Positions 10,947 to 35,200 of a stretch of DNA of 64,000 nucleotides are shown here, in pieces. Under the pieces are notes generated by a model that was given only the letters and a program-made list of their open reading frames with translations, was not told the DNA's origin and did no database searches. The translations under genes were made by a program, and so were the position numbers. Origin of the DNA: a virus (taxonomy: Duplodnaviria; Heunggongvirae; Uroviricota; Caudoviricetes); IMG/VR virus record IMGVR_UViG_3300044591_001876, positions 11,134 through 75,133 of that record. One strand, written 5' to 3'. The first letter of the stretch is position 1. The number at the start of each line of letters is the position of its first letter.

Positions 10947-11018
10947 TGGAGTGTAGCTCAGTGGTAGAGCGGTCGGCTGTTAACCGATTGGTCGTAGGTT
11001 CGAATCCCACCACTCCAG
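10947..11018 (+). tRNA. tRNA-Asn (anticodon GUU)
   Basis: Acceptor TGGAGTG/CACTCCA perfect, D-arm GCTC-AGTGGTA-GAGC, anticodon stem GTCGG/CCGAT with loop CTGTTAA, T-loop TTCGAAT; starts 4 nt after nuclease stop. Confidence 0.75.
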
Positions 11019-11021
11019 TTT

Positions 11022-11104
11022 GGGTAGGTGTCCGAGTGGTTTAAGGAACCTGACTGTAAATCAGGCGGCTCTGTCCAACGTTGGTTCAAATCCAACCCTG
11101 CCCA
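11022..11104 (+). tRNA. tRNA-Tyr (anticodon GUA), class II
   Basis: Acceptor GGGTAGG/CCTGCCC (one G-U), anticodon stem CCTGA/TCAGG with loop CTGTAAA, 14-nt variable arm, T-arm GTTGG-TTCAAAT-CCAAC. Confidence 0.75.
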
Positions 11105-11144
11105 TTGGCGATACTGCCAAACCAGAATCCCTTCCGTGTGCTTT

Positions 11145-11174
11145 AAAACCTCTCCTTCGGGAGGGGTTTTATTG
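11145..11174 (+). terminator. Rho-independent terminator closing the tRNA cluster
   Basis: AAAACCTCTCC-TTCG-GGAGGGGTTTT: 11-bp stem with UUCG tetraloop followed by T-run. Confidence 0.7.
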
Positions 11175-11182
11175 TATAAATA
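11175..11182 (+). promoter_or_regulatory. T4-type late promoter (TATAAATA, exact consensus)
   Basis: TATAAATA 36 nt upstream of ATG 11219 of the giant ORF. Confidence 0.6.
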
Positions 11183-11218
11183 CTCGTAAGAAGAAAGCAC
11201 ACATAGGTCTGGGTAATT

Positions 11219-20200: not shown

Positions 20201-21733
20201 TCATTCTGGGGAGGAACGACATATCAAGTTGATCCATCAAATGCCGAAGAATATTTCCTACCTATTGGGGAGCAAAGTTTCAACGAGTTTGGTATTGGTG
20301 ATTATGTTTTAATTGATCGTTCTGTACAAGTTACTGGTCAAGATACTGTATCTTCTCCTGTTGGAGAGCAATATAGTGAATTAGTACAGGTTATTGAACT
20401 TACTAATCTAAACGATATTTCTGATTTACCACTTAGAGTTAAAGTAAAGCGAGCTAGAAATGCTCTTACTGGCGAAGGTTTGATGATATCTGGTCCTAAT
20501 GTTGGATCCAGCACAGGTGTTTATCGTTATCTTAGAACTGATCACCCAGATAATGCTGTTCTTGTAAAATATACTTTAGCAAATGATGTAAGTTATATTG
20601 ATGAAGTAAGTGGATTGAATAATCCTGGTTCGGGAACAGTTCAAACAATTGCTACTGGTGTATTCAGCGGATCTGTAATTCCTGGCGATATTCTGAGATT
20701 TAGTGATAGTGAATTAGCTAATGTTAATGCTATTAATCAGACAACTAATCAACTTTTCAGAATTAATGATGGCGGCAACCCAGCGAATACTGTGTTCCAA
20801 GTTGATTCTACAACTGGTAATACAATTATAGCAGGAACTTTAGATTTAAATAAAACCTTCACACTTATTGGATCTTCAACAACAAATCAAGATAGATTTG
20901 TAATTACTAATGGCACTTCTCAAAGATTTGCTGTTGATAGTGCTACTGGCAACACATGTATTTTTGGAAATCTTGGTGTTGGTGGTTCGACTTGTGATAG
21001 ATTTAAAGTTGATGGCGCTACATCAAATACCACTTTACGTGGTGGAAATCTATTAATTACTGACAACAATCCTGTTGATGATGGTGATGGTGGATTAGTA
21101 TTTGGTCAGAAACTATTCTTACAAAATACTACAGGAAATCTGACTATTTCTGGAACGTTAACTACTGAAGGATCTGGTACTAGCACTTTTGCTGGTGATG
21201 TTAAAATTAACGGCGGTGATTTAACAGTTAATAAGATTGTTAGTGATGGTGATGGTGGAACATTAGAGCAAAAATTATTTGAAATTGGCAATGATGGATC
21301 TATGGATTTTGCTGGAGTAAATGGATTCTTTACTCCATCGGGTGCTAGAAAATGGGTATACGTTGGTGGTGGCGAAGATGTCATCGAGGGGGTTGCTAAT
21401 GTGAATTATTTCCTTTCTCCTTCTGCTGACACCATCTTCAAACTTCCACAAAATCCAACGACTGGTGATATGATTAGAGTAGTAGATGTTGGTGGAAATC
21501 TAACTTATAATATCTCATTGAGATTTAGAGCACCTTCGACTGTTCGTGTTCAGGGAGACAATACAAACTCTGGACAAGGACCAGCTATCGGGTCTACATA
21601 TAATGGTGGTGAACTTGTAGTACAATCTCCAAATGCTGCTCTCGGATTAATTTACATTGGTCCATTAAATTATGATGGTACTACTACTGGGGCTCCTCCA
21701 TCACAACAAGGTTGGTGGTTAATGGAAATCTAA
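11219..21733 (+). CDS. Giant virion structural protein (3504 aa), putative fiber/host-recognition protein with four N-terminal Cys-containing repeats
   Basis: Single uninterrupted ORF; late promoter; four copies of C.RDIGY.VDAV..DL..GGN......A..Y motif between aa ~180 and 1330; beta-rich, T/N/G/S-rich composition typical of fibers. Confidence 0.7.
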   Translation: MALTRLDNLYSSKTGKYLYVSPDDFNATDELDNRGNSPLRPFKTIQRAFIEVARYSYLPGQDNDRFDQFSIMLMPGDHYIDNRPGLIEVDRGEKQRYFDAKELIIANRQEIIDRAFGEIAIEYDEAAWGTDWVVPGDPINSDLNRGFDSYRLIQKNRQEIVDGAFAQIAITHPTFTNPNSAKCQRDIGYFVDAVSLDVLLGGGNRYTRKFLQNYFNNSGTAWIDNGLQGEEAESTTAFNKARDLMKAAVANQLTFKDLTLTIDPLTGSNTTVNSCANIQTTIATLTAIVTDVINDGNLEYLPEETIETIGLGESKCKRDIGYIVDAVAADLANGGNANIVAAAKSYFTKEGLPISNGLLGEEAQSVIAFNAAKVMMKKAVTNQLYSKDLNILSGPAVYNSGGPVVPNLPSGNVATCVDVQATIDTLIGIITTAISDGDITSLANVQITGDIPVFNYNRALEEWQDNSILDLSNPDNVLYKFNASTGGAIVPRGCSLIGYDLRRTIVRPLYVPDPADGTQERTSIFNLTGGCYIWQFTIKDGDLSENSPLYDNNDKVGKVYFQKGNNTQLAIPEYSHHKITIMTYADLDDLDLYYNKVATAFALFQPTIDDGDLEALPQENRIVGPLSDTRSIVNIRLKQSTNPSRTTIVATTKIAHGYFVNQYVAIVDNGLNDLLNGTFKVTAVDQEDPRIFEYQVATTPAILGLDINENGYSNSTTPSLNLSARAQAEIDSVESASPYVFNCSIRSTWGQCGMWADGSKATGFKSMVVAQYTGVSLQRDDRAFIRYDEFSNTWNQASLVDAFATIPYHSKGDAYWKDDWRNFHIRASDDAFIQCVSVFAVGFFDHFLMESGGDMSITNSNSNFGNTSLHAVGFKGFSFNQDKGGYITDIIPVKEIDDSAFNEVELKYYSIALQVSKDVANQTKLYYGSDDSYDPFDRPSTSISGYRLGAKTDEKIYLKLKSPAGTTEEYFSSVTPNGFKKYTVSLETLNPDGISIDNRAQDASNIIETNKTFIQQEAYGYITQKYPNLLTNTNIEISTCERDIGYFVDAVIQDLRLGGNINTIQAAEGYYIGGQLAYISNELNETIEALDYVKNLCISTMRNYDYLIRNCVTTQGSAIVDIGDTSGILIGMKVTQYDYNLINFTDGKLNPGATPVQLNPVIPNNVYVKKIIDANRIELGNLGSKLEQGLSVPANLNSSSAYLYFELPKTTSIVDSDSNLVGSWAATPAKKDNTLIQDTSTWGPTAGNGYPECSGVATIIQEYFVNIFLILNQGLTPLGGKEVDASNLILANKNLIAEEAVDRMLIANPGFVVPGGNQQCTDDVKLIIDAIAYNIKYGGNSRVYDAARVYVLQPNLLNGERTQAVQVYTQVRDLAIQAMRNQVITIQGDHNLTQYIDNTVIGDLSGQAGVYDSANDCADIASTITTFNGIITGAIGTDADPGDLVGITRTEPEFNNVTRVEPVVDTANLASRATLFTVNVGGGTSNPHNFETGTAVRLVPKARESTNPDKRVIRLPRGFQTNTVYYVIAPGRSTSPEDYSDETTYPNTFGPDESTKIMLARTKENAAAGIYIYSSETDSVDEEVEIELQQYVLDETYDLHQYLCNFITGQTDVIQTDVPHVFDVPSTLNTVHKVFFRSFGDPSESELPQITSGGITEPIDTNTYYYARFVTPKTFALFYTPTEAISGTPRITFTAGFGKNFYVFSDKRESPVKFDATLVNADTTTGQWYINTKNEISNQFNIIRRIQELGDTLKDARSKNTFYRRLRDNRTAQDRIYRLRYVIPEYAQGVRDPLNGFVLKARTDETRRLLPQKIVLAPVAVGSPNLAYFEIQLQQPTGGTIAQQLGLPKSQLDLNFEYDPYNINQVKVIDSDKTQSKVSFSIQSARQVNVNGTNLIELTVFDYGITNDQLRNEKFTTVKIDAPQGGTFRFNTLNSVSNNRITWSGFSAGSGYLQGYFNVDGTDEHYLIIKNIDDNKRIEYNSLIDTVFTQPVLDIDGEPVFDGDGNAVLIFAFLQAKENSVGSVNNSLSKSDRKDYLYSIKDSNVLTITPGDIIEDDDSTQYRVISVEDAGQIEDSFYIFDIDEIQRRIPNQQAGIYYLTCLKGNISPFPTGPGVGTNFRNFKFSQPISQLYPLDYKNDPLWFQVRADGSRDTSIVDVPPTICAADNFVHGLVTTNDSKNSETKEVVLDFINNPALNRYDYVVNPIAAQAGNATSGSEDRLIPISGDSPYPTEGRLYVELRRPSIARSGNHTFEYLGFGPGNYSTGFPLRQEVVLSDIQDFYAQSKKEDGGIVFYTGLNSNGDLYIGNRKINAITGEETYLERAQLISSDDETDDLGGLVTTFELPVVFEKDITVDGNANFNNPVTINVEPSEPFALTVVSNLNSSAGEDVTLDSATFALSDIPSEGNIVLSKNNIYSAIFTLNPRGNTALSGQNYSIRTHVNQTNGNIPSNYTPNQELSTLGLNVTFGSASPTPGDILLKGAQVDKTGSLGWIYSNFYDLITSNVFTVTALGSNIVQFTLQVGVTNSQIGITQGSKLKIGGFTGRYANLNGLRTVGTVTTNTFQVISPFIISTSVDDPTIIPAGWSIEISRNSWKEFGVLGAETLRTNTQNYGDFKLGINTLARAKHGTDGDQLTGFVSQAVDPRANLDIVGNAFISGRTLSTSPNNFINNPLLSNRTFNKVDHAFIVGFDPKTNAPQDEVVLRVASTTIGTASNAGGRIGINTTLSELDRNFVVKGNARITNDLKLESNLAINGGSLTTTSTSFNILDTIATDVNAFSVAEELNIANITNENQLINIGNVSNTQEFNIGRFVQTSQLWIHSNSTNSLVDIGTVSESSANTSIIRMGGAFGKLSNVESLFKIRNRYTEIDGNLSIGTYNPPGTGFSEFQTNSREVEMFSRNISTLDFATSVTRLNIGGAGGFTTINNTLVVKNAAEVNGDITLIGGLNAGAFTVRRGSFGTPTTIHVRGNIDLLNVDIFKKVIIQRTIDTQGLSFWGGTTYQVDPSNAEEYFLPIGEQSFNEFGIGDYVLIDRSVQVTGQDTVSSPVGEQYSELVQVIELTNLNDISDLPLRVKVKRARNALTGEGLMISGPNVGSSTGVYRYLRTDHPDNAVLVKYTLANDVSYIDEVSGLNNPGSGTVQTIATGVFSGSVIPGDILRFSDSELANVNAINQTTNQLFRINDGGNPANTVFQVDSTTGNTIIAGTLDLNKTFTLIGSSTTNQDRFVITNGTSQRFAVDSATGNTCIFGNLGVGGSTCDRFKVDGATSNTTLRGGNLLITDNNPVDDGDGGLVFGQKLFLQNTTGNLTISGTLTTEGSGTSTFAGDVKINGGDLTVNKIVSDGDGGTLEQKLFEIGNDGSMDFAGVNGFFTPSGARKWVYVGGGEDVIEGVANVNYFLSPSADTIFKLPQNPTTGDMIRVVDVGGNLTYNISLRFRAPSTVRVQGDNTNSGQGPAIGSTYNGGELVVQSPNAALGLIYIGPLNYDGTTTGAPPSQQGWWLMEI

Positions 21734-21734: not shown

Positions 21735-23345
21735 ATGCCGAAAAATTACAACGCTGTAAGAACACAAAAGGCATTACCAATTGGATCGGTAATGCCTTGG
21801 ACTGGGGTATTAACTAGAATCCCCAAGGGGTGGCTATTGTGTAATGGTGCTGAAGTTAGAGCCGATGAATATCCTTTGTTAGCTAGAATTCTCAAGGATA
21901 GTTATGGTGGTACTGGTTTCGATGGTTCTTTTCCAGATTATGAGGGAACTTTTAGATTGCCTGCCGTAAATCAAAAAACTCTTGCTGATATAGGACCAGA
22001 ACATTTTAATGCTAACGCTAGTATAGCACCATCATCTATTGATGATATTTCTGCTGGAAATGTTGTCATTCAATATCTTGGAGATGAAGGAGATTTGGGT
22101 CCTCCAACAACTGTTTTTGCTACTACAGATATTAATTTTACCTACACTCCAGATCCAGACGGATTTATTGCTGCTTATACTACTTCTGGATCTGGAATTG
22201 CTACTGGCTCCACACAAGTATTTAAAAATATCTCTGCTACTGGAGGTACTGGAACAGGAGCATTATTTACTGTAATTGTTGCTAGTGACGGAACATATTC
22301 TGTAGCTATTAAAAATAAAGGACAAGGTTATACACAAGGAAATATTTTAACCATAAGTGGAGCTAATATAGGTGGCGGAGGTAATGCTATAGTAACGGTT
22401 GATTCTATAGGTAATTCTTATTTTCAAGGAACTGTTGAAGGGCAAACATTTATTGGTGGGTTTGATGTTCGTTCTGTGTATGTAGTCCCAAGAAAATTGG
22501 GAAGAGATCACATGCCACAGCACGTACACCCAGGATCTTATGAAACGATTAATAAAAATGATTCTGATACAGTTCCTGGTACTGGTGTGGGAGTTTGGGA
22601 CAATCCCCAAATATTTTTAGCTCAAACATATGAGCAAACTAATGGAGACCCTAATGAATTTTGTTTTCCATTAAATCAAAATCCTGACGGTCCTTTAAGT
22701 AGTAATGGTGTTGCCAATTATTGGGGAGATCAAACTGGTCTTAATAGTAATGAAGCAACGGTTGGTTCTTCGAGTAGTCCTTTCCAACAAGGGTATGGAA
22801 AATACGCTCTAGCTGTTATTGGTGGAACAAAACCACCTAGAACACACATACCTATTCAAACTAGTGCCGCTGCTCACGGTGTGGGCAAAACTTGGTTTAC
22901 GTCAGCAAAAAAATTAAGAACTAGATCATCAGGTGAAACAGAAACTTCTGATTTAACTAATATTAGAACTACTGGTAGATTAAATGTAAATAGTTTTGTA
23001 CCATTTTCTGATGAAACAGCTCCAATTAAACAACCAAATTACGATTCGGGGGGCAACGGAAGCGATCAAGCAGATAATTTTAAAAAGACGCTTTATAATA
23101 CTGCCGCTGTTAGTTTTACAGTTACAGCTAAAGCTGACGCTAGTGTAAATGATGTTATTGAAACTCATGACCACGAAAGTGAATTTTTAGTTACTTATGA
23201 TCCAGGTAATTTAAATATTAGAGATTTTATTTCTGTTAATTGTCAGCCAAATGTTATTCCTGATAATGTACCAGAAGCTTTACAAATCGCTTTCACATTA
23301 ACTTCGCCATCATTATCCATAACAAATTTAATTAGGGCATATTAA
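21735..23345 (+). CDS. Tail fiber protein with N-terminal phage tail-collar domain
   Basis: MPWTGVLTRIPKGWLLCNGAEVRADEYPLLARILKDSYGG matches Phage_tail_collar (PKGWLxCDG...YP.L...G..YG) signature; 2 nt after giant ORF stop. Confidence 0.65.
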   Translation: MPKNYNAVRTQKALPIGSVMPWTGVLTRIPKGWLLCNGAEVRADEYPLLARILKDSYGGTGFDGSFPDYEGTFRLPAVNQKTLADIGPEHFNANASIAPSSIDDISAGNVVIQYLGDEGDLGPPTTVFATTDINFTYTPDPDGFIAAYTTSGSGIATGSTQVFKNISATGGTGTGALFTVIVASDGTYSVAIKNKGQGYTQGNILTISGANIGGGGNAIVTVDSIGNSYFQGTVEGQTFIGGFDVRSVYVVPRKLGRDHMPQHVHPGSYETINKNDSDTVPGTGVGVWDNPQIFLAQTYEQTNGDPNEFCFPLNQNPDGPLSSNGVANYWGDQTGLNSNEATVGSSSSPFQQGYGKYALAVIGGTKPPRTHIPIQTSAAAHGVGKTWFTSAKKLRTRSSGETETSDLTNIRTTGRLNVNSFVPFSDETAPIKQPNYDSGGNGSDQADNFKKTLYNTAAVSFTVTAKADASVNDVIETHDHESEFLVTYDPGNLNIRDFISVNCQPNVIPDNVPEALQIAFTLTSPSLSITNLIRAY

Positions 23346-23346
23346 C

Positions 23347-24225
23347 ATGGCAAAATATTACACTAGAGAAAAAGCAAAATATGGTGGTATTACAGGCATC
23401 ATAATGCCCTTTATGGTTAAATTGCCTGATGTTAATATTCCCGATCAATCTACTTGGAAAACTTTATTACCTGCTGGCTATTTGAGATGTGATGGCAGCA
23501 TTCTTTCTGCTGAGGTTTATCCTGGTCTTGCTGCTATTTTAGGAACAGGACAAAATTCTAAATTTGCTAAAAATCCAGATGTTCTTACAAGTAATCAATT
23601 TCAACTTCCGGATTTAGGATCAAAATATGTTAGATGTGCTAATTCAACTGGTCAATATCTTAATCTAACATTGGATCAAGATCCATCAATTACTAAAGTT
23701 GGAGCGGAAACAATAGTACAATCATTGGTTGGAGATTCGGTAACAATTAGATATGGGGGAAGTTTTGAAGTTATTGGTCAAGAAAATTCTTTTGGTGGAA
23801 ACCCTCTATACAAAACTTCTACTGGGTTTGTTTTGAATTCTCCATTAACAGAAGAAAATTTTCAAGCTCACGGTCACGATGCCGATGTTGGGGTGTTTAC
23901 GTATTTGGGTAATTGGACAGATACTTCATATGTTCAAAATAGAGGTAGTAGAGGCGGAAATGATTCACAAACTGAAGGATCTAATAATGTTGTTCCTTTA
24001 GATGGTCCCGAAGGATCTACATTTACAATAAATCATACTCATGGTATTAATTTACCTGGATCAACGGAATTAAAAGATAATACAACACTAAAATATCAAT
24101 TTTTTAATACTGACATTGCTGCTGATGGTCTAGAAAGTGAAGTCATTATTACTACTGAAAATGTTAAAAAATTGGACACTGCTATATCACCTTACATGTT
24201 AGTAGAATTTATTATCAAGATATAA
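23347..24225 (+). CDS. Tail fiber protein with tail-collar domain
   Basis: LPAGYLRCDGSILSAEVYPGLAAILG...QLPDLGSKYVRC collar motif; 292 aa. Confidence 0.6.
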   Translation: MAKYYTREKAKYGGITGIIMPFMVKLPDVNIPDQSTWKTLLPAGYLRCDGSILSAEVYPGLAAILGTGQNSKFAKNPDVLTSNQFQLPDLGSKYVRCANSTGQYLNLTLDQDPSITKVGAETIVQSLVGDSVTIRYGGSFEVIGQENSFGGNPLYKTSTGFVLNSPLTEENFQAHGHDADVGVFTYLGNWTDTSYVQNRGSRGGNDSQTEGSNNVVPLDGPEGSTFTINHTHGINLPGSTELKDNTTLKYQFFNTDIAADGLESEVIITTENVKKLDTAISPYMLVEFIIKI

Positions 24226-24229: not shown

Positions 24230-25663
24230 ATGCCCAGTCAAGATTTTACTAGTTCGACATCTTGGACAGCACCCTTTGCTTGTAGAAATGTAACTGCTAC
24301 AGCTATCGGTGGTGGTGGATCTGGCTATAAAGATAGAACTGATAATCAAGATGGTGGTGGCGGCGGCGGCGGTGGATTTGCTAGATCTACGAGATCAGTA
24401 GCTGGCGGAACCGTTGTATCCATAACTGTTGGATCTGGTGGTAATCAGCCAGGAAATAATAATTCCAACAACGGCGGAACTACTATAATTAGTGGTGGAC
24501 CATTAGGTGTAACTGCTACTGGGGGGAGAGGAGGCACTGACGGGCAAGGTGGAAATGGTGGTAGTGGATCTGGAGATGAAACTGGTGGTGGACAAGATGG
24601 AACAAAAGATTCCGACAATAACACTACTGGCGGCGAAGGTGGTGGAGCAGGAAGACCAGGAGGTAATTCTGGACGCTGTGGTAATTCTCTGGGGGGACAA
24701 GGAACAAATTTAGATGGGTCTCAGGCAGGATGTACTGGTGGTAAAAGGGGAGGTAATTATGGAGCTGGTGGAGCTGGTAATACTAATGGAGGTGAGGCAG
24801 GCGCTGGCGCTAATGGAGCTGCTCGATTAGTATGGGATTTTCATCCACCACAAATAAATTCATTTACTGCTAGTACTCAAACTAATCCAGTTCCAGGAAC
24901 ATTAAGTAGTACTATAACACTAACTTGGAGCACTACTTATGCTAGCAGTGTAACAATTGATCAAGGAGTTGGTGGAGTTGCTGTTAATTCTGGTGGGTTC
25001 TCAGTTAATACTGGTCTTCAATCTGTCGCTGGATCTAATTCTCCAGCACAAAGAACTTATACAATAACAGCCACTGGTCCTGGAGGAACTGTCACCGCCA
25101 CTGCTACTGCTAGTGTTTATAATGATGGTACTCCAAATGATTACTCCGTACCAAGTCAAACAAATTTAGAACCAAGTACATTAACCAGCATTTCGATTGG
25201 AACAATTACTGGCATAGATGTTACAATTAATGCCCAAGGTGGTCCTGGTGTACAAGTATCAACTAATAATTCTTCTTGGGCTGGATCTGTTTTTGTATCT
25301 AATAACAATCCTTTATTTGTTAGAGCTGTTTCTCCCCCATTCAATACTGATCCATCTGGGTTAACTAATTCTTCTAGTTTTTATGTTGATGTGGGTCCCA
25401 TTCGAAGATTTTTTACCTTAACAACTAGAGCGCCTGATGTCAACGAGACATTTAATTACCCAAATGAAGATGATAGAGTTCCTTTTCCTGATATAGATAC
25501 TATACCCGATCCAGCTGAACCTTATATTATATCTAACACATTAACTGTTGATGATATTGAAATACCTGTAGAAATTAAAACTAATAATTCTAATGTACAA
25601 ATTAGAAAAAAAACTCCTGGCTCATCTGCTTGGGGCGAATGGATCGATATAAGGAGTATTTAA
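24230..25663 (+). CDS. Tail fiber paralog 1: Gly-rich variable N-terminus + conserved C-terminal module
   Basis: N-term ~200 aa ~50% Gly (GGGGGGGG runs); C-terminal ~270 aa closely similar to C-termini of ORFs 25664 and 26969 (…FNTDPSGLTNSS.FYVD.GP.R..FT.TTRAPDV.ETFN…DDIEIPVE.K…W..W.D.RSI). Confidence 0.6.
   Translation: MPSQDFTSSTSWTAPFACRNVTATAIGGGGSGYKDRTDNQDGGGGGGGGFARSTRSVAGGTVVSITVGSGGNQPGNNNSNNGGTTIISGGPLGVTATGGRGGTDGQGGNGGSGSGDETGGGQDGTKDSDNNTTGGEGGGAGRPGGNSGRCGNSLGGQGTNLDGSQAGCTGGKRGGNYGAGGAGNTNGGEAGAGANGAARLVWDFHPPQINSFTASTQTNPVPGTLSSTITLTWSTTYASSVTIDQGVGGVAVNSGGFSVNTGLQSVAGSNSPAQRTYTITATGPGGTVTATATASVYNDGTPNDYSVPSQTNLEPSTLTSISIGTITGIDVTINAQGGPGVQVSTNNSSWAGSVFVSNNNPLFVRAVSPPFNTDPSGLTNSSSFYVDVGPIRRFFTLTTRAPDVNETFNYPNEDDRVPFPDIDTIPDPAEPYIISNTLTVDDIEIPVEIKTNNSNVQIRKKTPGSSAWGEWIDIRSI
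24848..25663 (+). repeat. Conserved C-terminal-module repeat, copy 1 (~0.8 kb)
   Basis: Protein-level identity ~60-75% with copies at 26135-26968 and 27698-28528; long identical nt stretches visible (e.g. TTTAACACAGATCCTTCTGGTTTAACTAA). Confidence 0.6.
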
Positions 25664-26968
25664 ATGCCGTTACCTCCAGCAGTATCAGTAAATTGGACTA
25701 CATCTCAAGTTGGTGTTGGCGCTCCTTTTGGATGGAATATATCAAATAGTGGAAACACTATAAGATTTGATGTACAGGATTCTGCTAATTGTGGCGGTCC
25801 TAATGGTAATGTTCAAAATGGTGTTGCTACAGCAGTATTGAGTGCTCAAGCAAGATTTAATATGACTGTTTCGTTAACTGGTCTGGGAGAAAGTCAAGAT
25901 CCTGGATTTGAAAATATGAGTTTGAGATTCAATGGAGCCGAAATAATTAGAGCAACATCTCCAGGTGGACAACAAGGTTGTGCTGTAGGAAGACCAGTAA
26001 ATCAAACAATAGTAGTTCCTGGCCCATATTTTCTAGCTAAAAATAGCACTAATTCTTTTCAATTAAATTTTAGCACGACAGACTCTTTATTCCACGTTGG
26101 TTGTTTTTATCAATGTAATTTGACTTTTACCTTATTAGATCCTCCAGAAATTTTTGAATTTTATGCTGATCCAAATCCACAAACTAGTGGTATTTTAGGT
26201 GTACCATCAGCAAATACAGCATTTTTTTGGAATACTTTTGGGGCACAAACATTAAACATTAATCAAGGAGTTGGCGAACTTTCTTCGATTGCTGGATCAA
26301 CTGGAACAGTTAACACTGGTCTTCAATCTATCACAGGATCAGTTTCGCCAGCAACTAAAACTTATACACTAACAGCAGCAAATAGTGCTGGCACAACGAC
26401 TGCTCAAACTACAGTATCAGTATATAATGATAATACTCCAACTGGGTTCAGTATACCAAATCAAAATAATGTAGAACCAAATAGTCCTGTAATTATACAA
26501 ACATCAGCAATTGAAGGAATAGACATGATAACTGTTGCTAGTGGTGGTCCAGGTGTTCAAGTTTCTACCAACGGCGTTAATTATGCTAATACAACTACTA
26601 TAAGTAACAATCAACAATTATACGTAAAAGTTTTTTCTTTACCATTTAACACAGATCCTTCTGGTTTAACTAACTCTACTCAGTATTATGTTGATGTTGG
26701 ACCAACTAGATCAACTTTTACAGTGACAACAAGAGCACCAGATGTTAATGAAACCTTCAATTACCCAAATGAAGATGATAGATTACCATCTCCAGATATT
26801 GATACAATACCTGGAACACCAGATTCATATATAACATCGGATACTTTAACGGTTGATGATATTGAAATACCAGTTGAAGTTAAAGTTAGTAATCCAAATG
26901 TTCAAGTGAGAATAAAACCTTCTGGTTCTACTAATTGGAATAATTGGCAAGATGTAAGGAGTATATAA
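25664..26968 (+). CDS. Tail fiber paralog 2: Cys-containing N-terminus + conserved C-terminal module
   Basis: Shares C-terminal ~275 aa with flanking paralogs; N-terminus non-Gly-rich, unique. Confidence 0.6.
   Translation: MPLPPAVSVNWTTSQVGVGAPFGWNISNSGNTIRFDVQDSANCGGPNGNVQNGVATAVLSAQARFNMTVSLTGLGESQDPGFENMSLRFNGAEIIRATSPGGQQGCAVGRPVNQTIVVPGPYFLAKNSTNSFQLNFSTTDSLFHVGCFYQCNLTFTLLDPPEIFEFYADPNPQTSGILGVPSANTAFFWNTFGAQTLNINQGVGELSSIAGSTGTVNTGLQSITGSVSPATKTYTLTAANSAGTTTAQTTVSVYNDNTPTGFSIPNQNNVEPNSPVIIQTSAIEGIDMITVASGGPGVQVSTNGVNYANTTTISNNQQLYVKVFSLPFNTDPSGLTNSTQYYVDVGPTRSTFTVTTRAPDVNETFNYPNEDDRLPSPDIDTIPGTPDSYITSDTLTVDDIEIPVEVKVSNPNVQVRIKPSGSTNWNNWQDVRSI
26135..26968 (+). repeat. Conserved C-terminal-module repeat, copy 2
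   Basis: See copy 1. Confidence 0.6.
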
Positions 26969-28528
26969 ATGGCATCATCAACTTTTAGTGCTACCTACAC
27001 ATCTAGCCAAACTATATCTATTCCAGCAAATGCTACCAACATTTCTATTCAAGTTGCTGCTGCTAGGGGTGGATCTGGTGGTTATGATGCCAATACTCCT
27101 GGGGGAACTTATGGAGCTGGTAGATTCGGAACATTTAATATACAACCATCATTTGTTGCTAGAAATTTACAATTTAATATTGGTACGATTGGTGGCGATG
27201 GAACGAGTAGCCAAGGTAGTGCTCCTGGTGGCGGTGGGGGTGGTGGTGTTGCTTCTGGTGGAACAGGTGGTCGTGCTGGTCCACAGGGATCTTCTGGAGG
27301 TGGCGGTGGCGGTGGCGGAGCCACTGGTGTTTATGATAGTTATTCTGGTTCTTGGATCATTGTTGCTGGTGGCGGCGGCGGTGGCGGTGGAGCAGCATAC
27401 CCAGGCGTTAATGGTTTAATAGGTGATGTTGCTCTTAATTGGGTAGGTTCTGTTTCTCCAATCAGTAACGGTGGTGGTGGTGGTAATTGTCCTAGTGATG
27501 GATCTGGTGGTGGTGGAGGCGGAGGTGGTGCTAGCGGAGGAGGTGGAGGATATAATGGTTTTGACGTGAGTGTTGGAAACGTCAATGCTAGGGGTGGATA
27601 CGGTGGTGGTAGCGGATATAACACTACATACGCTTCATTAACTTCATCAAATATTAATAATGGTAACGGATATATTTTTATTCAATACACTTTATTAACT
27701 CCAGAAATTAATAATTTTTCGGCAAATCCAAATCCACAAACTAGTGGATCTGATGGTATTCAAAATTATGACACTACATTAAGTTGGAATACATCAGATA
27801 CAACATCTGTTTCTATAAGTAATATTGGTGTGGTTGGTTCTAGTGGTTCTGCTAGTATTACAAATTTACCTCAATCAACAGTTGGTTCGTCTTCTCCTGC
27901 CACGAGATCTTATACATTAACTGCTTGTGCTGGATCTAATTGTGTCAATCAAACTATAACCGTTGAAGTTTTTAATGATAATACACCAGATAATTATAGT
28001 ATTTCTAATCAAAGTAATTTAGAACCAAATACTTTAACGACTACCAGTACAACAACTATAACTGGAATTGATATGCAAACTATAGTATCTGCTGGACCAG
28101 GAGTTCAAGTTTCTAATAATAGCGTAAATTGGTCTGGATCTGTTTTGGTATCAAATAATAACGTAATTTTTGCTAGAGCTTCGTCTCCTCCATTTAATAC
28201 AGATCCTTCTGGTTTAACTAATTCTTCACAGTTTTACATTGATATTGGTCCAGTTAGAAGATTTTTTACACTGACAACAAGAGCACCAGATGTCAGTGAA
28301 ACGTTTAATTTTTCTAATAAAGATGATAAAGTTCCTTATCCAGATATAGACACTATAACAACTCCTCCAGACAATCCAGCGGAACAATATATTAGTTCGA
28401 ATACTTTAAGTGTCGATGATATTGAAATACCAGTTGAAATTAAAACCAATAATTCAAATATACAGATTAGAGTAAAACGAGCTGGAGCTAGCAGTTGGGA
28501 AAATTGGCAAGATACTAGATCAATATAA
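26969..28528 (+). CDS. Tail fiber paralog 3: highly Gly-rich N-terminus + conserved C-terminal module
   Basis: N-term 240 aa with G8-G10 runs encoded by (GGN)n tracts; C-terminal module as in paralogs 1-2. Confidence 0.6.
   Translation: MASSTFSATYTSSQTISIPANATNISIQVAAARGGSGGYDANTPGGTYGAGRFGTFNIQPSFVARNLQFNIGTIGGDGTSSQGSAPGGGGGGGVASGGTGGRAGPQGSSGGGGGGGGATGVYDSYSGSWIIVAGGGGGGGGAAYPGVNGLIGDVALNWVGSVSPISNGGGGGNCPSDGSGGGGGGGGASGGGGGYNGFDVSVGNVNARGGYGGGSGYNTTYASLTSSNINNGNGYIFIQYTLLTPEINNFSANPNPQTSGSDGIQNYDTTLSWNTSDTTSVSISNIGVVGSSGSASITNLPQSTVGSSSPATRSYTLTACAGSNCVNQTITVEVFNDNTPDNYSISNQSNLEPNTLTTTSTTTITGIDMQTIVSAGPGVQVSNNSVNWSGSVLVSNNNVIFARASSPPFNTDPSGLTNSSQFYIDIGPVRRFFTLTTRAPDVSETFNFSNKDDKVPYPDIDTITTPPDNPAEQYISSNTLSVDDIEIPVEIKTNNSNIQIRVKRAGASSWENWQDTRSI
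27225..27560 (+). repeat. (GGN)n simple-sequence tracts encoding polyglycine
   Basis: Runs such as GGTGGCGGTGGGGGTGGTGGTG, GGAGGTGGCGGTGGCGGTGGCGGA, GGTGGCGGCGGCGGTGGCGGTGGA; similar tracts at 24355-24380, 30690-30710, 30940-31040, 31160-31200. Confidence 0.7.
27698..28528 (+). repeat. Conserved C-terminal-module repeat, copy 3
   Basis: See copy 1. Confidence 0.6.
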
Positions 28529-28550: not shown

Positions 28551-28727
28551 ATGAAAAAGACATTTGTAGATGCCCCCAACATGTCTCCGAAAGAAGAGTA
28601 CTATCGCTCACAAATTATTTCTGTAAATAACATTAAAGAAAACGAAAAATTAGAAATTAAAGCATCGGAACCAATTCAAGTTAGAATTAATGGGGGACCA
28701 TGGCAAGATATAAGACCACTACAGTGA
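28551..28727 (+). CDS. 58-aa mini-ORF resembling the extreme C-terminus of the fiber paralogs
   Basis: ATG 28551 with AAGGTGA RBS; ...KLEIKASEPIQVRINGGPWQDIRPLQ parallels ...EIPVEIKTNNSNVQIRVK..W.NWQD.RSI; below ORF-track cutoff. Confidence 0.4.
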   Translation: MKKTFVDAPNMSPKEEYYRSQIISVNNIKENEKLEIKASEPIQVRINGGPWQDIRPLQ

Positions 28728-28764: not shown

Positions 28765-31700
28765 ATGCCATTTAGTAGTACGCCAGTATATGTTGGGCTT
28801 GGAGATCAAGTAGAAGTTAGATACCCAACACCATCAACTTGGAATACAAAAGTATCAGTTAACGTTCAAATTGGAACTGGTTCTGATCCTGATGGCATTA
28901 TTTTTGGTACGAGAATACCAGATTCGAGACCAGATAGTTTTAGCTTTAACGATCAACAAGCATTTATTAACACAAGTACCACAACAGTACTTACAACAAT
29001 TGAAAGATCTACTACATATTATTCAAATGAAATTTTAGTTAATGGAATTGAAATTGAAATTCCTGCTGTAGTAACGGTTACTACTAGTGGTCCGAAAGGA
29101 ACTACGACAGGAGCAAATGCCGCTGCTGCTTTTAGAATAGATCGTGGTGGTTCTATAGGTCCTTGGATTACGTCAGGAACTGTACGTCAAGGCGATAAGA
29201 TCAGATTACGATTAACCACCGAAAATTGGTATACTACAACAACTAATGTAACCCTCAGACTTTCAGATGAAACGTGGGGAACAAATGTAGGGCAACCTAG
29301 TGCTGTAGTAAGTGATACTTGGTCTGTTACTACACGAGCACAAGATCAACTTGTAAATTCTTGGCAGTTTACTGATTTTGTTGATGTTATTGCTACAGAA
29401 TTTGGTACATACAAAACACAAAATATACCCATCACTGGCATTGATTCTGATGCTGTTTTAAGAGCTACATCTACTGGTAATGTACAGATTTCTAAAGATA
29501 ATTCAACTTGGTCTCAATCTGTAACTGGTCTTGTTTTAAACAATACATTATATACACGAATTGCTATTGGATCTACGTATACAACTAAAACATCTGGATC
29601 CGTAACTATTTTTTCAAATGATGCTGATACTTTAACTGGCGGTTACGAAAATAACGATGCTGGAACTTATGGGTCTGGAACTTTTCAAGTAATACAAGCA
29701 ATTGGAACTGTAACAGATAACTGGTATGTTTGGACAGAAGTAGATAGATATCCAAATACTGTTTCTTTATCTCCTATTTTTACTCCATCCGATGATGGAA
29801 CAATTGATAATGTTGTAGTTAGTTCTACAAATACTTTTAATGCTGCTGAACCAGACAGAACTTATTTTACCAATTTCAATATTTCTGGATTGGGTACAGA
29901 ATATCCAAGCAATACATATGCTGAAGCAGCAACCCCAATTAATCCTTCGTATCTTTCTAGTTCACTACCGTTAAATACTACTCCAACTTCAAATCAAACT
30001 GTACAAGTTCTTTGTTCTGTAACTAGTGGTGATGCTCAAATTAGAAAGAATAATACAGGAACTTGGGTACAACAATTATATGTTCAAAATGGCGATCAAG
30101 TAAATTTAAGATTAACTGCTTCTCCCAATTTCAATACTACAAAAACTAGTTCAATTAGAATATCTGGTCCTCCATCAGCTGGTCCTAATGGGAACCCCAC
30201 GGCAGGTCCAACAACACCTACATTTGCTGATAAAGTAGATACAATTACTTTAAAAACACGACTTTCTAGAAGCACTCCATATCCATTCAGAGCTAGAGAT
30301 AATTATACCGCTTTGCCTGGACAAACATATATTGTAACCATACCAATTGCTGGTCTTGATGTAGCTACCACAGCACAAGCAGTAGATGCCGAATCAACTG
30401 TAGGAGCAAATGTACAAGTAAGTGTAGATAACGTAACATTTGCTAAAACTGTTACTGTTCCTGCTACTGCTGAAGTAGTATATGTAAGAGCAACTGCTTC
30501 AAATACTCAAGGTAATGTTGTTAGTGCTGCTTATAGAATTGGAAGCACTACTGATGTTTGGAAAATACAAACACAAATAGAAGACAATATTTATGCTAGT
30601 TACAGTGGTGGTGTTGGTGCTAGTGGGTCTTTTGTTGAATATAATCTCCCAGCTTATGTACAGCAATTATCTTTTGTAATGTATGGTGGTGGTGGCGGAA
30701 ATGGTGGTGATGATGCCCCAAATAGTTTTGGTGGAAGGGGTGGTTTTAGTACAATATTAAAGGGTGTAATTAATTTACCTCAAGAAGTGTTGAATGATGA
30801 CAATTTAAGAAATCTAAAAATATATACAGGAAATTCTGGTAGATTTGGTGTAAATTTCTTGAGTGGTGCTCAAGGTGGAGCTGGTGGTTGGGGTTATGCT
30901 ATTGGTGGTGATGGTGGTAATGCTGGTCCTAGCGATAAATCAGGTGGAGGAGGCGGAGGCGGTGGTGCTTCCGCTATTACATTAGGGGATGGAACTTTAC
31001 TTGTTATGGCTGGAGGTGGTGGCGGCGGTGCTGGTGCTGGTAATGACACTACGCTTCAACAAACAAATCAAAATGGCAACTATACAGGAATAACTACATT
31101 AAGAACATCTTTAAATGGATTGAATTTTAATGGTTCTGATGGTCAATCTAATCTCACCGATGGTGGTGGTGGAGGCGGTGGTGGTGGTGGCTTTGGAGCT
31201 GGTGGAATAATTCCGCCAAACAAAGTTGATGAAAGTGGTGTTGTAATCCAAACAACTGATTTAGATGCTATTGGTGGCACAACTGGAGATCTTTATTATA
31301 ATTCAAATTACGCCACAATAACAGAAACAACTGGTTTAAATTTGGGTGCTGGACCACAAGAGTTTGGCTATGTAATGTTAACTTATTCTCCGCAGGACAT
31401 TACACCAGAACCATTTTTCTTCCCTGAAGTAGATAATGCTTCTCCTGCTACTCAATACACTTCAGAAAAAGTTCAAATTTTTGGAATCACTGGTGGAGTT
31501 ATATCTACATTGATTGGTAATAATGCCCAAGTTAGAACTTGTAATCCAAATGATCCAAATACCTGTGGAGCATGGGGACAATCAGCAATTATTTTCAATG
31601 AAGGATATGTTCAAGTCAGATTTACAACTGGCAATGATTATTTTACGACTTACAGAGCAAACGTTACGATTGGTAATGTAACTTCATTCTTTAATGTAAA

Positions 31701-34233
31701 TACTGGCGAACCCCCAGATAATAATCCAGCGCCATTTACAATACCAAATAAAATAGATCAAGCAGTTAATACTTTAATTGAAAGTGATATTGTGTATGTG
31801 TCTGGGATTAACATACCAGTAAATATAACTGCTAGCAATGGAGCACAAATTTCTATTTGTACTCCATCTGGGACATGTGATACCTACCAAAATTCTCCTA
31901 GACAAATATCGAACGGTCAGGGCTTTAAGGTTAGATTGTTATCATCACCAGATAATTTAACATCTGTTTTTACTGACGTAGCTATAGGAACTGGTCCATC
32001 AGTTGAGTGGGAAGTTAGAACAATTAAAAGTTTTGATACTTCGCCAATCGGTTTTATTTTCACTGATTTATCTAATGTTCCGCTCAATACTCTCGTAAAT
32101 AGTAACACCAGAACAATACAGGGTATTGATACATCTATTGTTGCTACTGTGACTGGTGGAGCTTCTGTAATATTAAATGCCAATACAGCAAATCCAATAC
32201 TTCCTGTCGGAAATACAACCACATTCACTGTAAGCAATCTTGATAGTATTCAATTACGATATACGACTAGCGGTATAAATGGAGATCCAAAACAATTTAT
32301 TGTAACTGTTGGAACTTATAGCACTACATGGACAGTCACAAACGAAGGGCAGTTAGGAACAACACCAACACCATTTTTATTCACGCCAGTACTTGCTACT
32401 GGTCCTGGTACATTTACTGATTCTGAAATTATCACAATTAGTGGTCTGGGTCAAACAGTAAGTATATTTTCTACTGGTGGTGGATTAATTAGTATCAATG
32501 GTGGTAGTTTTCAATTGTTGACTGCCTCTAATCCAGGAACTGTTAGTAATGGTAATACAATTAGAGTTAGATTAAAATCAAGTGAAATAGAAGCATTTTC
32601 TCTTTCTACCAATATATACGTTGGTTCATTTAATACCCCATTCTCGGTAATTACCCCTGGACCAGAGCCAGAACCTGTATTTGGGCAGTATTACAGCAGT
32701 CCTTTTGTAATTAAGGTATTAGGTTCCGATCAAATTAAATTTAATACTAAATTTGATGGCATGGCAATTGGATCAATTATGCCTGTATTTAAAGATAATA
32801 CCCAAGTAGATGAATGGGGAATTTCTGAGGATAAATTGAATGGTAAAGCCAACTCTAGATTTCCTGGGTGGATTTATTGTGATGGTAGATTTGTTTCACC
32901 ACAAGATTATCCACTTCTTTATCAAGTAATTGGAAATACTTTCGGGGCAAATCTTGCTGGGGAATTTAGAGTTCCTGACATGAGAAATAGAAAACTTCTC
33001 GGAACAGGAAACGTAGATAACCAATCACCATCTTCGCCAATTGTCACACCAGAATATGGTCCAGCAAAACAAAGTGGAAATGGTTCTGCTTTTATTCCAG
33101 GATCTTTTGGTGGAATGTGGTACATTGACACTATTGCCGATCCTGGTATAGATGAATTGGAACAAGTAGAAACCCCAGCAACTGGACAACCAGCTCAAGA
33201 TAGTCAATTTTTTGCTGTTGCTCAAATTATCACAACTGGTTATTCTGAAGTATCAGATACAATCGAATTTGCTGTTAGTGGACAAGTATCTGGTCAGGTT
33301 TCTTTAAAAGAAACTAAACTTTTTGATGTTCCATTCCACCAGCATAATCTTATTACTGGACAAGCTGATTTAGGTAGTGTTAAAGGAAGAGTTGGGTGGG
33401 GAAGTCCTGGTGGTGCCCCTAGTGGAGTTGATATAGGACAAAAAGGCGGAAATTCAGCATCTCCTCCTCTAGAAGGAACGGCAACTATTAATCTGTGGGG
33501 ATATCATACTGGGAATCAATATCAATTGCTGAGCGATCCTTCAAATAGTGATGAAAGCGCCAACACTCTTAGAACAACTAATTCAATTGCTACATATGGT
33601 ACTGTTTGGGGTAAAAAAATCGGAGAATATGGTTTATGTCTCCCTCCAGGAAAACAAGGAAACTTCTTAAATCCTAATACAGATCCTGGACCAACTCAGG
33701 ATGAATATCAATGTATTGAGTTTTTACAAATATTTGATACGTCTTGTGGTAGCCCTACTACTGCCGAAATTCATAATTCAATTACTATTAGACAGCCAAA
33801 CTCAGCAATATTTGGTGAAATTTATAATTACGTAGATAATAATGCTTTGCCAGCAGACACAGTTTCTGGCAATAATTTAAGATGGATTGGAGCTGTAACT
33901 ATTCCTAGAAGATTTATTAGCGTTTCTAAGTTTTCTCCTTCAACAAAACTTTCCCATTCCCATTATCTTTCGTTGTCTGCTATAACTAATACTAATACCG
34001 TATTTTCTTATGGTAATAGTATTGGGGGCGGAACATCGTTTGGTGGGGCACCTACCAATTCTTCAGTTTCTGTCGTATTTACTGCTGCTCAAGTTGGACT
34101 TGAAGTTTTCCCAGGAACATTTACTTTAGGTTTAGGAAAACAGTTGATACCGTCGCCAGCATTCTCTCCAAATGATTTGGTGCCACTTGTTACACCTTAT
34201 ACTAAAGTTAGATGGGTAATCAAAGCATATTAA
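28765..34233 (+). CDS. Large tail fiber protein (1822 aa) with central Gly-rich region and C-terminal tail-collar domain
   Basis: RFPGWIYCDGRFVSPQDYPLLYQVIGNTFG..FRVPDMRNRKLLG collar motif near aa 1370; internal GGGGGGGG runs similar to paralog 3 N-terminus. Confidence 0.65.
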   Translation: MPFSSTPVYVGLGDQVEVRYPTPSTWNTKVSVNVQIGTGSDPDGIIFGTRIPDSRPDSFSFNDQQAFINTSTTTVLTTIERSTTYYSNEILVNGIEIEIPAVVTVTTSGPKGTTTGANAAAAFRIDRGGSIGPWITSGTVRQGDKIRLRLTTENWYTTTTNVTLRLSDETWGTNVGQPSAVVSDTWSVTTRAQDQLVNSWQFTDFVDVIATEFGTYKTQNIPITGIDSDAVLRATSTGNVQISKDNSTWSQSVTGLVLNNTLYTRIAIGSTYTTKTSGSVTIFSNDADTLTGGYENNDAGTYGSGTFQVIQAIGTVTDNWYVWTEVDRYPNTVSLSPIFTPSDDGTIDNVVVSSTNTFNAAEPDRTYFTNFNISGLGTEYPSNTYAEAATPINPSYLSSSLPLNTTPTSNQTVQVLCSVTSGDAQIRKNNTGTWVQQLYVQNGDQVNLRLTASPNFNTTKTSSIRISGPPSAGPNGNPTAGPTTPTFADKVDTITLKTRLSRSTPYPFRARDNYTALPGQTYIVTIPIAGLDVATTAQAVDAESTVGANVQVSVDNVTFAKTVTVPATAEVVYVRATASNTQGNVVSAAYRIGSTTDVWKIQTQIEDNIYASYSGGVGASGSFVEYNLPAYVQQLSFVMYGGGGGNGGDDAPNSFGGRGGFSTILKGVINLPQEVLNDDNLRNLKIYTGNSGRFGVNFLSGAQGGAGGWGYAIGGDGGNAGPSDKSGGGGGGGGASAITLGDGTLLVMAGGGGGGAGAGNDTTLQQTNQNGNYTGITTLRTSLNGLNFNGSDGQSNLTDGGGGGGGGGGFGAGGIIPPNKVDESGVVIQTTDLDAIGGTTGDLYYNSNYATITETTGLNLGAGPQEFGYVMLTYSPQDITPEPFFFPEVDNASPATQYTSEKVQIFGITGGVISTLIGNNAQVRTCNPNDPNTCGAWGQSAIIFNEGYVQVRFTTGNDYFTTYRANVTIGNVTSFFNVNTGEPPDNNPAPFTIPNKIDQAVNTLIESDIVYVSGINIPVNITASNGAQISICTPSGTCDTYQNSPRQISNGQGFKVRLLSSPDNLTSVFTDVAIGTGPSVEWEVRTIKSFDTSPIGFIFTDLSNVPLNTLVNSNTRTIQGIDTSIVATVTGGASVILNANTANPILPVGNTTTFTVSNLDSIQLRYTTSGINGDPKQFIVTVGTYSTTWTVTNEGQLGTTPTPFLFTPVLATGPGTFTDSEIITISGLGQTVSIFSTGGGLISINGGSFQLLTASNPGTVSNGNTIRVRLKSSEIEAFSLSTNIYVGSFNTPFSVITPGPEPEPVFGQYYSSPFVIKVLGSDQIKFNTKFDGMAIGSIMPVFKDNTQVDEWGISEDKLNGKANSRFPGWIYCDGRFVSPQDYPLLYQVIGNTFGANLAGEFRVPDMRNRKLLGTGNVDNQSPSSPIVTPEYGPAKQSGNGSAFIPGSFGGMWYIDTIADPGIDELEQVETPATGQPAQDSQFFAVAQIITTGYSEVSDTIEFAVSGQVSGQVSLKETKLFDVPFHQHNLITGQADLGSVKGRVGWGSPGGAPSGVDIGQKGGNSASPPLEGTATINLWGYHTGNQYQLLSDPSNSDESANTLRTTNSIATYGTVWGKKIGEYGLCLPPGKQGNFLNPNTDPGPTQDEYQCIEFLQIFDTSCGSPTTAEIHNSITIRQPNSAIFGEIYNYVDNNALPADTVSGNNLRWIGAVTIPRRFISVSKFSPSTKLSHSHYLSLSAITNTNTVFSYGNSIGGGTSFGGAPTNSSVSVVFTAAQVGLEVFPGTFTLGLGKQLIPSPAFSPNDLVPLVTPYTKVRWVIKAY

Positions 34234-34258: not shown

Positions 34259-35200
34259 ATGGGAAAATTAAATTTTAATCCTGACGATTTTGTATTTGAA
34301 AAGTTGCCTTCTCCTGATGAGAAAAAAACAATTCTTGAGTATGATGCAAAAAACAGATTAATTCTTCTAAGAACTAAAGACGAAACTGGTAATTATGTTT
34401 ACAACAGTGTAGTAATTAGTTCGGCAATCAATGAAAATATTTTAAAAAATATTCCTGATGAGTGGTCAAATGACAACGATAGAATTATTTTGTTCGCCAT
34501 CTACGAAAATGGTGATTATATAATTGAAAAGGAAAAATTGAAATATGATTTTTCTACAAAAAATACTAGATGGATTCAATATACATCTGACTTCTTAACT
34601 ATAGAACAAGCAAAAGAATTATATAATATTCTGAATGCTGCTATCACTATCGACACGGAAGTAAAAAATTATAATGCTACTAAAGAGTATTTGGAATTAT
34701 CTAAAACTGCTTATTATCTTTCCGAATTCAATAAAAAAAATGATCATTTTATTGAGGAATTGTTGAGAGGAACTGATCATAAGGTTCTCCCAGATGCTCC
34801 AGAACTTTTTGAAAATGAAAAGGAAATGTGGATTACGTGGAGAAATAAACTTCGTGATTTGGATAAAATCCGTGATGATTTTGAAACTGATTTAGATTAT
34901 ATAATTTGGATTGAGGAAATGAAATGGCCCATAAGACCAGATCAATACTATTCAAAGTATTCTAATTTAGAAGAGGAATATTTAAGTACTCCAGATCAAT
35001 TTGTAAATAATCCACAATTTTTGAATCTTAAATCATCTTCCGATTCAACAATGGAAGTTACAAAATTTGCTGAAATGATTAGAACGTATGAAGTATCTGG
35101 GTTTGAAATTAACCCAACAACATCAAAACTTGTGGCCAAATATAATTTAATTAAAGATATCGAAGAGTTTAAAACTATTAAAATGAAGGAGATGGAATGA
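34259..35200 (+). CDS. Hypothetical protein (313 aa), late-expressed
   Basis: ORF with late promoter; K/E/D/N-rich; no recognisable motif. Confidence 0.5.
   Translation: MGKLNFNPDDFVFEKLPSPDEKKTILEYDAKNRLILLRTKDETGNYVYNSVVISSAINENILKNIPDEWSNDNDRIILFAIYENGDYIIEKEKLKYDFSTKNTRWIQYTSDFLTIEQAKELYNILNAAITIDTEVKNYNATKEYLELSKTAYYLSEFNKKNDHFIEELLRGTDHKVLPDAPELFENEKEMWITWRNKLRDLDKIRDDFETDLDYIIWIEEMKWPIRPDQYYSKYSNLEEEYLSTPDQFVNNPQFLNLKSSSDSTMEVTKFAEMIRTYEVSGFEINPTTSKLVAKYNLIKDIEEFKTIKMKEME

Follow-up and report, generated by a model that had tools for sequence, protein, structure and literature searches.

What are three neighbouring genes that end alike and begin differently doing in a phage genome? 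Genes A, B and C lie end to end in a stretch of 64,000 nucleotides (nt) from the IMG/VR virus record IMGVR_UViG_3300044591_001876 (positions 11,134 to 75,133; hereafter the window). A sequence-only reading of the window had called them tail-fiber paralogs with a common C-terminal module of ~275 amino acids (aa), shuffled by recombination between repeats, and had proposed that the locus diversifies host recognition. The genes are indeed three consecutive open reading frames (ORFs) that abut on the + strand and fill positions 24230-28528 exactly. We read their products as modular adaptors or adhesins attached to the virion, with a C-terminal tail anchor and alternative receptor-binding heads, and put the probability of this sequence-based reading at roughly 60%. 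A common attachment site probably lets the phage mount several host-recognition heads.

A shared C-terminal module under variable heads

The last 273-280 aa of A, B and C are paralogous, with 52-58% identity by BLASTP (E 1e-80 to 1e-97). This similarity is far above chance and upholds the common module. At the nucleotide level, three-copy repeat families run across the three genes at intervals of 1305 and 1548-1560 nt. The proposed nucleotide repeat is therefore present, but its description as "identical nucleotide stretches" was overstated because the copies have diverged: the modules are 64-65% identical in a codon-aware alignment (70-87% over the last ~120 codons), the longest exact runs measure 17-24 nt, and the same codon is used at only 55-65% of the conserved residues. 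By sequence, A, B and C are old paralogues. All three are under purifying selection when compared with L002, a colinear IMG/VR contig that is 95.4% identical (IMGVR_UViG_3300044642_000842). The synonymous and non-synonymous differences number 28 and 5 in A, 38 and 10 in B, and 79 and 25 in C, and the selection covers both heads and stalks.

We modelled residues 195-477 of A with AlphaFold from a 114-sequence alignment, obtaining a predicted local distance difference test (pLDDT) score of 92.7. The model shows a pair of beta-sandwiches (D1 and D2), after which comes a tail of ~78 residues with almost no regular secondary structure. The shared module is thus predicted to comprise two domains resembling immunoglobulin (Ig) or fibronectin type III (FN3) folds and a C-terminal tail of ~50-75 aa. 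In the monomer model, these are ordinary globular Ig-like domains with no intertwined shaft. The proteins therefore do not look like tail-fiber paralogs of the classical sort; what they have in common appears to be a pair of Ig/FN3-like beads and a tail rather than a trimeric shaft. A search of PDB sequences with the module profile gave no match. Identity among A, B and C climbs towards the C-terminus, from 40-46% in D1 through 56-68% in D2 to 63-75% in the tail. The junction between head and stalk is sharp, and nearly all family members begin the module at position 1-5 of its hidden Markov model (HMM).

The N-termini had been described as entirely different, which is true of B but not of A and C. 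The head of A is a Gly_rich_2 domain (Pfam PF21722; 40.7-44.5 bits against a cut-off of 24.3), whereas the hyper-Gly-rich head of C scores 7.1 bits (E 6.7) with the same model, under the gathering threshold of 24.3. BLASTP is unusable between Gly-rich heads owing to composition correction, and profile methods were used instead. With hhalign, A-type and C-type heads are homologous (E 2.2e-7, probability 93.5%). When the C-type family profile was compared with the PDB, positions 26-241, which span the whole head, matched seven ALK chain sequences (E 8e-6 to 2e-5), and LTK followed at E 0.0086. These profile matches place A's and C's heads, though they have diverged, in a single superfamily related to the glycine-rich domain with which ALK and LTK bind ligands outside the cell. 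The head of B is unrelated to them. In the myocyanophage Pam3, the outermost part of fibre gp24, which recognises the host, has a TNF-like plus glycine-rich fold; it is reported to resemble the ALK domain and the gp38 adhesin of Salmonella phage S16, likewise a receptor-recognising fibre tip (PMC9608196).

The Cys-containing N-terminus of B had been picked out correctly: its four cysteines are conserved in every B-type homologue. A search with this head returned only two extra homologues. A 181-aa protein on a 202-kb JGI contig, which is large and phage-sized, is a standalone homologue (P0122; 48% identity over 94% of the head) and stops exactly at the head/D1 boundary. Because it ends there, B's head appears to be an autonomous unit.

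Arrays in related cyanophages

With the module profile we recovered at least 227 metagenomic proteins, and the module stands at the end of nearly every one. At least 12 head classes sit on it, including the hyper-Gly class (42 proteins), Gly_rich_2 (19), the B type (11), a SUEL lectin (9) and several smaller classes. The SUEL head (PF02140) reaches 39.3 bits in P0042 against a cut-off of 31.4, and none of the window's three genes is among its nine carriers. The structural neighbours in BFVD include an S-RIM44 protein named "PA14 domain-containing protein". On IMG/VR contigs the genes form abutting arrays of two to four, most often three, upstream of an orthologous fibre gene. Such arrays, with differing heads, occur in about 12 related loci and three isolates. 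Three genes are present in the window, S-PM2, S-CAM1, Sf-FR1, L011, L012, L016, L018 and L020. The relatives thus hold no fixed, identical trio: gene number varies from two to four and the heads differ, and this variation accompanies a repeat that can be detected in nucleotides.

The cultured phages place the array in a constant slot. In Synechococcus phage S-PM2, the gp12-like p221 and the collar protein p222 are followed by p223-p225, fibre p226 and chaperone p228. The proteins p223, p224 and p225 are annotated "virion structural protein" (T4-like gene clusters 737-739) and share ~320 C-terminal aa (47-50% identity over 311-345 aa) under differing heads. S-CAM1 gp23-25 occupy the same slot and have a common C-terminal part with 37-55% identity. 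Sf-FR1 gp22-25 also lie there, and the record breaks one of the phage's three genes of this kind into two ORFs. The split concerns positions 9929-11837 of Synechococcus phage Sf-FR1 (PV340855, L001), where SfFR1_23 (Gly-rich, 304 aa) and SfFR1_24 (333 aa) correspond to one gene of 634-650 aa in relatives; they match residues 1-306 (69% identity) and 318-650 (80%) of the L017 protein. The split reflects a frameshift, pseudogenisation or a sequencing error.

The likeness between the window and these isolate arrays, together with PHROG 2155, lies in the slot, in differing heads on a common C-terminal module and in the terminal tail motif, which the tail (D3) HMM matches at E 1e-6 to 1e-4. S-PM2 also has a hyper-Gly head matching that of C and Ig-like repeats of the D1 type. 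By head type, the counterparts of C are S-PM2 p225 and Sf-FR1 gp25. There are differences as well: S-PM2 has two to three D1-type repeats and another domain where the window genes have D2, S-PM2 and S-CAM1 lack B's head type, and identity across lineages is only ~30-40%. A tblastn search with the whole module reached only Sf-FR1, and the wider family was found by profiles and by the tail alone. Judged from these comparisons, this phage is not alone in having the trio, which is its own version of a slot that T4-like cyanophages in general retain and that S-PM2 fills with p223-p225. Cyanomyoviruses have kept the array for a long time, and structural-protein annotations already exist for its members. 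In the searchable literature library, we found no published account of the array architecture, nor of PF21722 in phages.

Several further observations concern individual relatives. We found no close cultured relative of the phage, and a nucleotide search of the locus against phage isolates matched only glycine-codon-rich patches. In L020 (2922-4121) and L021 (5621-6427), the first array member has a truncated or degenerate module that covers HMM positions 4-49 plus 114-283, or no more than 4-143, and is possibly a paralogue in decay. Contig L031 seemed at first to have a different neighbourhood, but its DNA is identical to the window and the difference arose from gene calling. We also set aside the cyanophage S-TIM4, for which experimental evolution and proteomics have been published (PMC6224464), as its mutation-rich region is a different module.

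How have heads and stalks evolved? We built a neighbour-joining tree of 32 modules from 12 loci. The tree follows genome lineage: the window groups with L006, and L016 with L018, each in 100 of 100 bootstraps, whereas monophyly of the hyper-Gly-headed or of the N4-headed modules was recovered in 0 of 100. Clustering by lineage fits either heads that moved onto resident stalks or stalks homogenised by conversion or by co-evolution with a shared partner. The proposal of shuffling by recombination between repeats is partly supported by the modular build, the sharp head/stalk junction and the grouping by lineage rather than head type. However, exact runs of at most 24 nt leave little substrate for present homologous recombination between the copies, and comparison with L002 revealed no recent conversion tract. 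At sites where the window and L002 differ, agreement of an allele with a paralogue is about as frequent in one genome as in the other. One weak asymmetry was found: when gene C is set against paralogue B, 27 of the window's alleles agree, compared with 12 in L002.

Over positions 14842-35660 (20.8 kb), the window and L002 do not differ in net length, and their divergence forms a mosaic. Per 300 nt, it amounts to 0-2% at 14.8-19.3 kb and about 10% at 22.3-23.2 kb. It is 11-13% in parts of gene C and reaches as much as 14.7% at 33.4-33.7 kb, close to where the long fibre encoded downstream has its C-terminus.

The terminal tail, the downstream fibre and the locus

The tail motif, with the consensus ...DIxIPVEIK..P.QVR....W...R.I, stands at the very C-terminus. 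An HMM of the tail built from the window family matches the last residues of S-PM2 p223-225 and S-CAM1 gp23-25 (E 1.5e-6 to 4.2e-5), and positions 1149-1192 of the 1193 in PHROG 2155 match B at 385-434. We searched 1.84 billion representative proteins with the tail profile and obtained 105 clusters at E <=1e-3. In 90 of them the match ends no more than 6 aa from the C-terminus, in proteins of 41-1690 aa, and about 8-10 clusters in this library are tail-only proteins of 41-64 aa. Given these terminal matches and tail-only clusters, the tail is strictly terminal, highly conserved and autonomously encoded. Such properties would be expected of a docking peptide.

An ORF of 58 aa specifies the tail motif and nothing else (tail HMM E 3.7e-4). 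It lies in the supposed gap between C and the fibre gene and was missed in the sequence-only reading, but independent gene callers predict it too. It has a ribosome-binding site of its own, AAGGTGA, 7 nt upstream, and a T4-type late-promoter-like TATAAATA at 28524 overlaps the stop codon of C. Homologous ORFs of 58-63 aa occupy the same position in Sf-FR1 (SfFR1_27), L006, L007, L008, L010, L015 and L019; in all, eight or more loci carry a tail-only gene. On this evidence from sequence and position, the ORF is a fourth member of the array, one with neither head nor stalk.

Parts of the module also recur in other arrangements. Three giant proteins, P0123 (4386 aa), P0200 (1505 aa) and P0129 (1697 aa), contain internal repeats, up to 32-34 in number, that match the latter part of the tail motif (profile positions ~31-60), which is consistent with a tail related to a repeated Ig-like unit. 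P0001, a headless protein of 547 aa on a 3.9-kb JGI contig, has ~2.5 tandem copies of D1-D2 and then a final tail.

The 1822-aa fibre downstream contains 8-9 copies of a D2-type Ig-like domain (D2 HMM, full-sequence E 1.6e-23). It had been said to reuse the Gly-rich segment type, and a stretch does align with Gly_rich_2 from end to end (see the table), but at only 14 bits and E 0.05, below the Pfam threshold. The first 51 residues of the fibre align with columns 52-105 of D2, its second half (hhalign E 3.5e-5), and no other part of the protein is as well conserved in any of the 10 comparisons with orthologues. From these alignments, the fibre looks as if it starts mid-domain, within a D2-type Ig-like fold.

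The locus is the tail-fibre module of a marine, T4-like cyanomyovirus. Two collar-domain genes are followed by A, B and C, then by the collar-domain, gp12-like fibre gene and finally by a chaperone gene. The collar pair matches phrog_4591 ("short tail fiber protein") and phrog_4714 ("tail collar protein") and is ordered like S-PM2 p221 and p222, which fixes the slot of A, B and C. The chaperone gene is the counterpart of S-PM2 p228. Directly upstream of the collar genes, at 11219-21733 (+), an ORF of 3504 aa occupies the place that giant genes named "tail protein" or "short tail fiber protein" have in Sf-FR1, S-CAM1 and S-PM2.

The terminal codons of A create a Shine-Dalgarno-like AAGGAG some 9 nt ahead of B's ATG. 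The B-to-C junction (26950-26971) has the same built-in AAGGAG; across A and B, the codons read AGG AGT ATT/ATA and then TAA. Gene C, which has no abutting gene, encodes the same terminal residues by AGA TCA ATA. The junctions suggest translational coupling of A, B and C, which are probably co-transcribed. Besides the one at the end of C, late-promoter-like motifs occur before the 1822-aa fibre gene (TATAAATA at 28729, T4-type) and right after its stop codon, ahead of the chaperone gene (AATAAATA at 34234).

Table. Coordinates of the array and of the genes around it in the window. Limits of D1, D2 and tail in gene A were taken from HMMs.
Feature	Position	Strand	Residues	Remarks
Two tail-collar-domain genes	21735..24225	+	536 aa, 292 aa	Upstream of the array; Pfam Collar
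Gene A	24230..25663	+	477 aa	ORF
Gene A head	24230-24841		1-204	Gly-rich
Gene A D1	24842-25117		205-296	Ig/FN3-like
Gene A D2	25118-25432		297-401	Ig-like
Gene A tail	25433-25660		402-477	C-terminal
A-to-B junction	25645..25666	+		R-S-I codons AGG AGT ATT then TAA
Gene B	25664..26968	+	434 aa	ORF
Gene B head	25664-26140		1-159	Four-Cys, all-beta
Gene B D1	26141-26422		160-253
Gene B D2	26423-26737		254-358
Gene B tail	26738-26965		359-434
Gene C	26969..28528	+	519 aa	ORF
Gene C head	26969-27697		1-243	Hyper-Gly-rich
Gene C D1	27698-27970		244-334
Gene C D2	27971-28285		335-439
Gene C tail	28286-28525		440-519
Tail-only mini-gene	28551..28727	+	58 aa	ORF encoding MKKTFVDAPNMSPKEEYYRSQIISVNNIKENEKLEIKASEPIQVRINGGPWQDIRPLQ
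Long-fibre protein	28765..34233	+	1822 aa	Downstream of the array; Pfam Collar; phrog_4924 "short tail fiber protein"
Fibre N-terminal half-domain	28765-28917		1-51
Fibre Gly-rich segment	30622-31197		~620-811
Fibre collar domain			1367-1409	C-terminal part gp12-like
Tail (fibre) assembly chaperone gene	34259..35200	+		End of module; phrog_4697 "tail assembly chaperone", E 2.1e-40

Candidate roles of the array

If A, B and C are virion-attached adaptors, each would be built as a variable N-terminal head, an Ig/FN3-like D1, an Ig-like D2 and a C-terminal tail. The tail would be the common plug that docks every member at one site of the tail apparatus, and the two Ig-like domains would serve as a spacer. 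The heads would face outward and bind different host-surface ligands, so that one virion or one population would carry several specificities. New specificities would arise by head exchange at the head/D1 junction, while co-resident stalks would stay alike either through gene conversion or because they evolve together with the docking partner that they share. The earlier suggestion of a locus that diversifies receptor binding is broadly supported by the comparative evidence, namely the arrays, the head classes and the heads of ALK/LTK and lectin type. It needs amending in that the proteins are probably Ig-bead adaptors anchored by their C-termini, the array is old and conserved, and a headless fourth member belongs to it.

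Where would the tails dock? It is conceivable, though we consider it doubtful, that the tails (~50 aa) act in trans as a plug that completes the split Ig-like domain of the fibre. Residues 1-51 of the fibre would be the socket, and the half that it lacks would come from the tails of A, B and C or from the 58-aa protein. A homotrimeric fibre would offer three such sockets, to be filled combinatorially by headed adaptors or by a headless cap, with the 58-aa protein as the cap or placeholder for the fibre site. The analogy, for this speculative step only, is with donor-strand complementation, as the fibre N-terminus corresponds to the second half of D2. In chaperone-usher pilus subunits, an incomplete Ig-like fold is completed by a segment of another chain.

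Several points weigh against the adaptor reading or its docking step. The label "virion structural protein" is an annotation on homologues of A, B and C. No function could be assigned to B's head in the searches made, and S-PM2 and S-CAM1 are without a tail-only gene. The tail does not match the first half of D2 significantly (hhalign E 0.14-0.17), nor does it do so when the mini-genes and isolate tails are added (E 0.04-0.06), although the alignment falls in the right register. Because this similarity is not significant, we keep split-domain docking as a hypothesis only. In addition, alignments read by eye suggest that the tail includes one strand that overlaps the fibre N-terminus. Lastly, the tail is predicted confidently in a single chain without a partner (pLDDT 81-92, deep alignment), and for this reason it may fold back on D2 rather than dock in trans.

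Could the three proteins instead act as one unit? A, B and C might co-assemble through their Ig-Ig-tail stalks into a heterotrimeric, three-headed tip or side fibre, in which case the paralogues would not compete for one site and the three heads would act together. Three is the commonest array size, abutting genes with built-in Shine-Dalgarno-like sequences suggest equimolar synthesis, and co-resident stalks are more alike than stalks with the same head type elsewhere, as expected if stalks touch. Yet array size varies from 2 to 4, a tail-only member exists, the tail is found on proteins as short as 41 and as long as 1690 aa, and the monomer model has globular Ig-like domains in place of an intertwined shaft. 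We therefore regard this arrangement as unlikely. Lower odds attach to decoration proteins resembling Hoc, which would sit on capsid, neck or sheath and mediate non-specific adherence to mucus, particles or cell surfaces rather than set host range. Tandem Ig/FN3-like domains with a C-terminal anchor do recall the general design of T4 Hoc, and the BFVD neighbours include an "Outer capsid protein" of S-SCSM1 and a "Decorating protein". This idea fits poorly with genes that lie within the tail-fibre module, from collar genes to fibre and chaperone, in every phage examined, with a D2 domain common to the fibre itself, and with heads homologous to known receptor-binding domains of fibre tips; no Pfam or PHROG match to Hoc was found either.

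Least probable of all, and in our view very improbable, is a non-structural role, with A, B and C as assembly factors or as secreted or decoy proteins made late and the module serving folding or export. A chaperone gene is nearby, and the tail-only protein could be an assembly factor. Against such a role stand the annotation of homologues as virion structural proteins in several isolates, the size and multi-domain, adhesin-like build of the proteins, and the purifying selection on heads and stalks alike. We favour virion-attached adaptors with exchangeable heads.

As such adaptors, A, B and C resemble several known systems in part. With Pam3 gp24, S16 gp38 and ALK/LTK, they have in common that the heads of A and C belong to the same glycine-rich domain superfamily. 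In Pam3 gp24 and gp38, however, the anchor is N-terminal and the Gly-rich head C-terminal, whereas the window proteins reverse this order, with an N-terminal head carried on two Ig-like beads and a presumed C-terminal anchor. The same reversal, with a variable N-terminus and a conserved C-terminus, sets them apart from classical receptor-binding proteins of fibres and tailspikes. CBA120/Det7-like and K1-5-like phages carry branched sets of trimeric beta-helix tailspikes with N-terminal anchors. There, too, neighbouring genes combine a conserved attachment part with a variable binding part, and host range shifts by module exchange. In the window, the conserved part is C-terminal, consists of Ig-like domains and a short tail, and is accompanied by a headless member. 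T4 Hoc has tandem Ig-like domains and a C-terminal capsid-binding domain, and the likeness lies in Ig-like beads on a C-terminal anchoring element. The window genes differ from it in having no sequence match, a place in the tail-fibre module and heads of the kind that bind at fibre tips.

Marine Synechococcus and Prochlorococcus lose a large share of their cells to T4-like cyanophages. To our knowledge, the host-recognition apparatus of these phages is largely uncharacterised. They have no recognisable homologues of T4 gp34, gp35, gp37, gp10, gp11 and gp12, and structural proteins of unknown function may take over those roles (review PMC2984593). The locus described here provides a parts list: exchangeable heads (glycine-rich ALK/gp38-type, lectin, PA14 and others), one stalk, a strictly C-terminal tail and a headless member. 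If the fibre docking were true, it would be a new way to attach receptor-binding proteins to a fibre, a plug-and-socket system that mixes heads on one fibre across T4-like cyanophages and can evolve by head swapping. If the heads determine adsorption, the array would account for host-range differences among close cyanophage relatives, head type would be a metagenomic marker of specificity, and the head/D1 boundary would be a natural swap junction for phage engineers.

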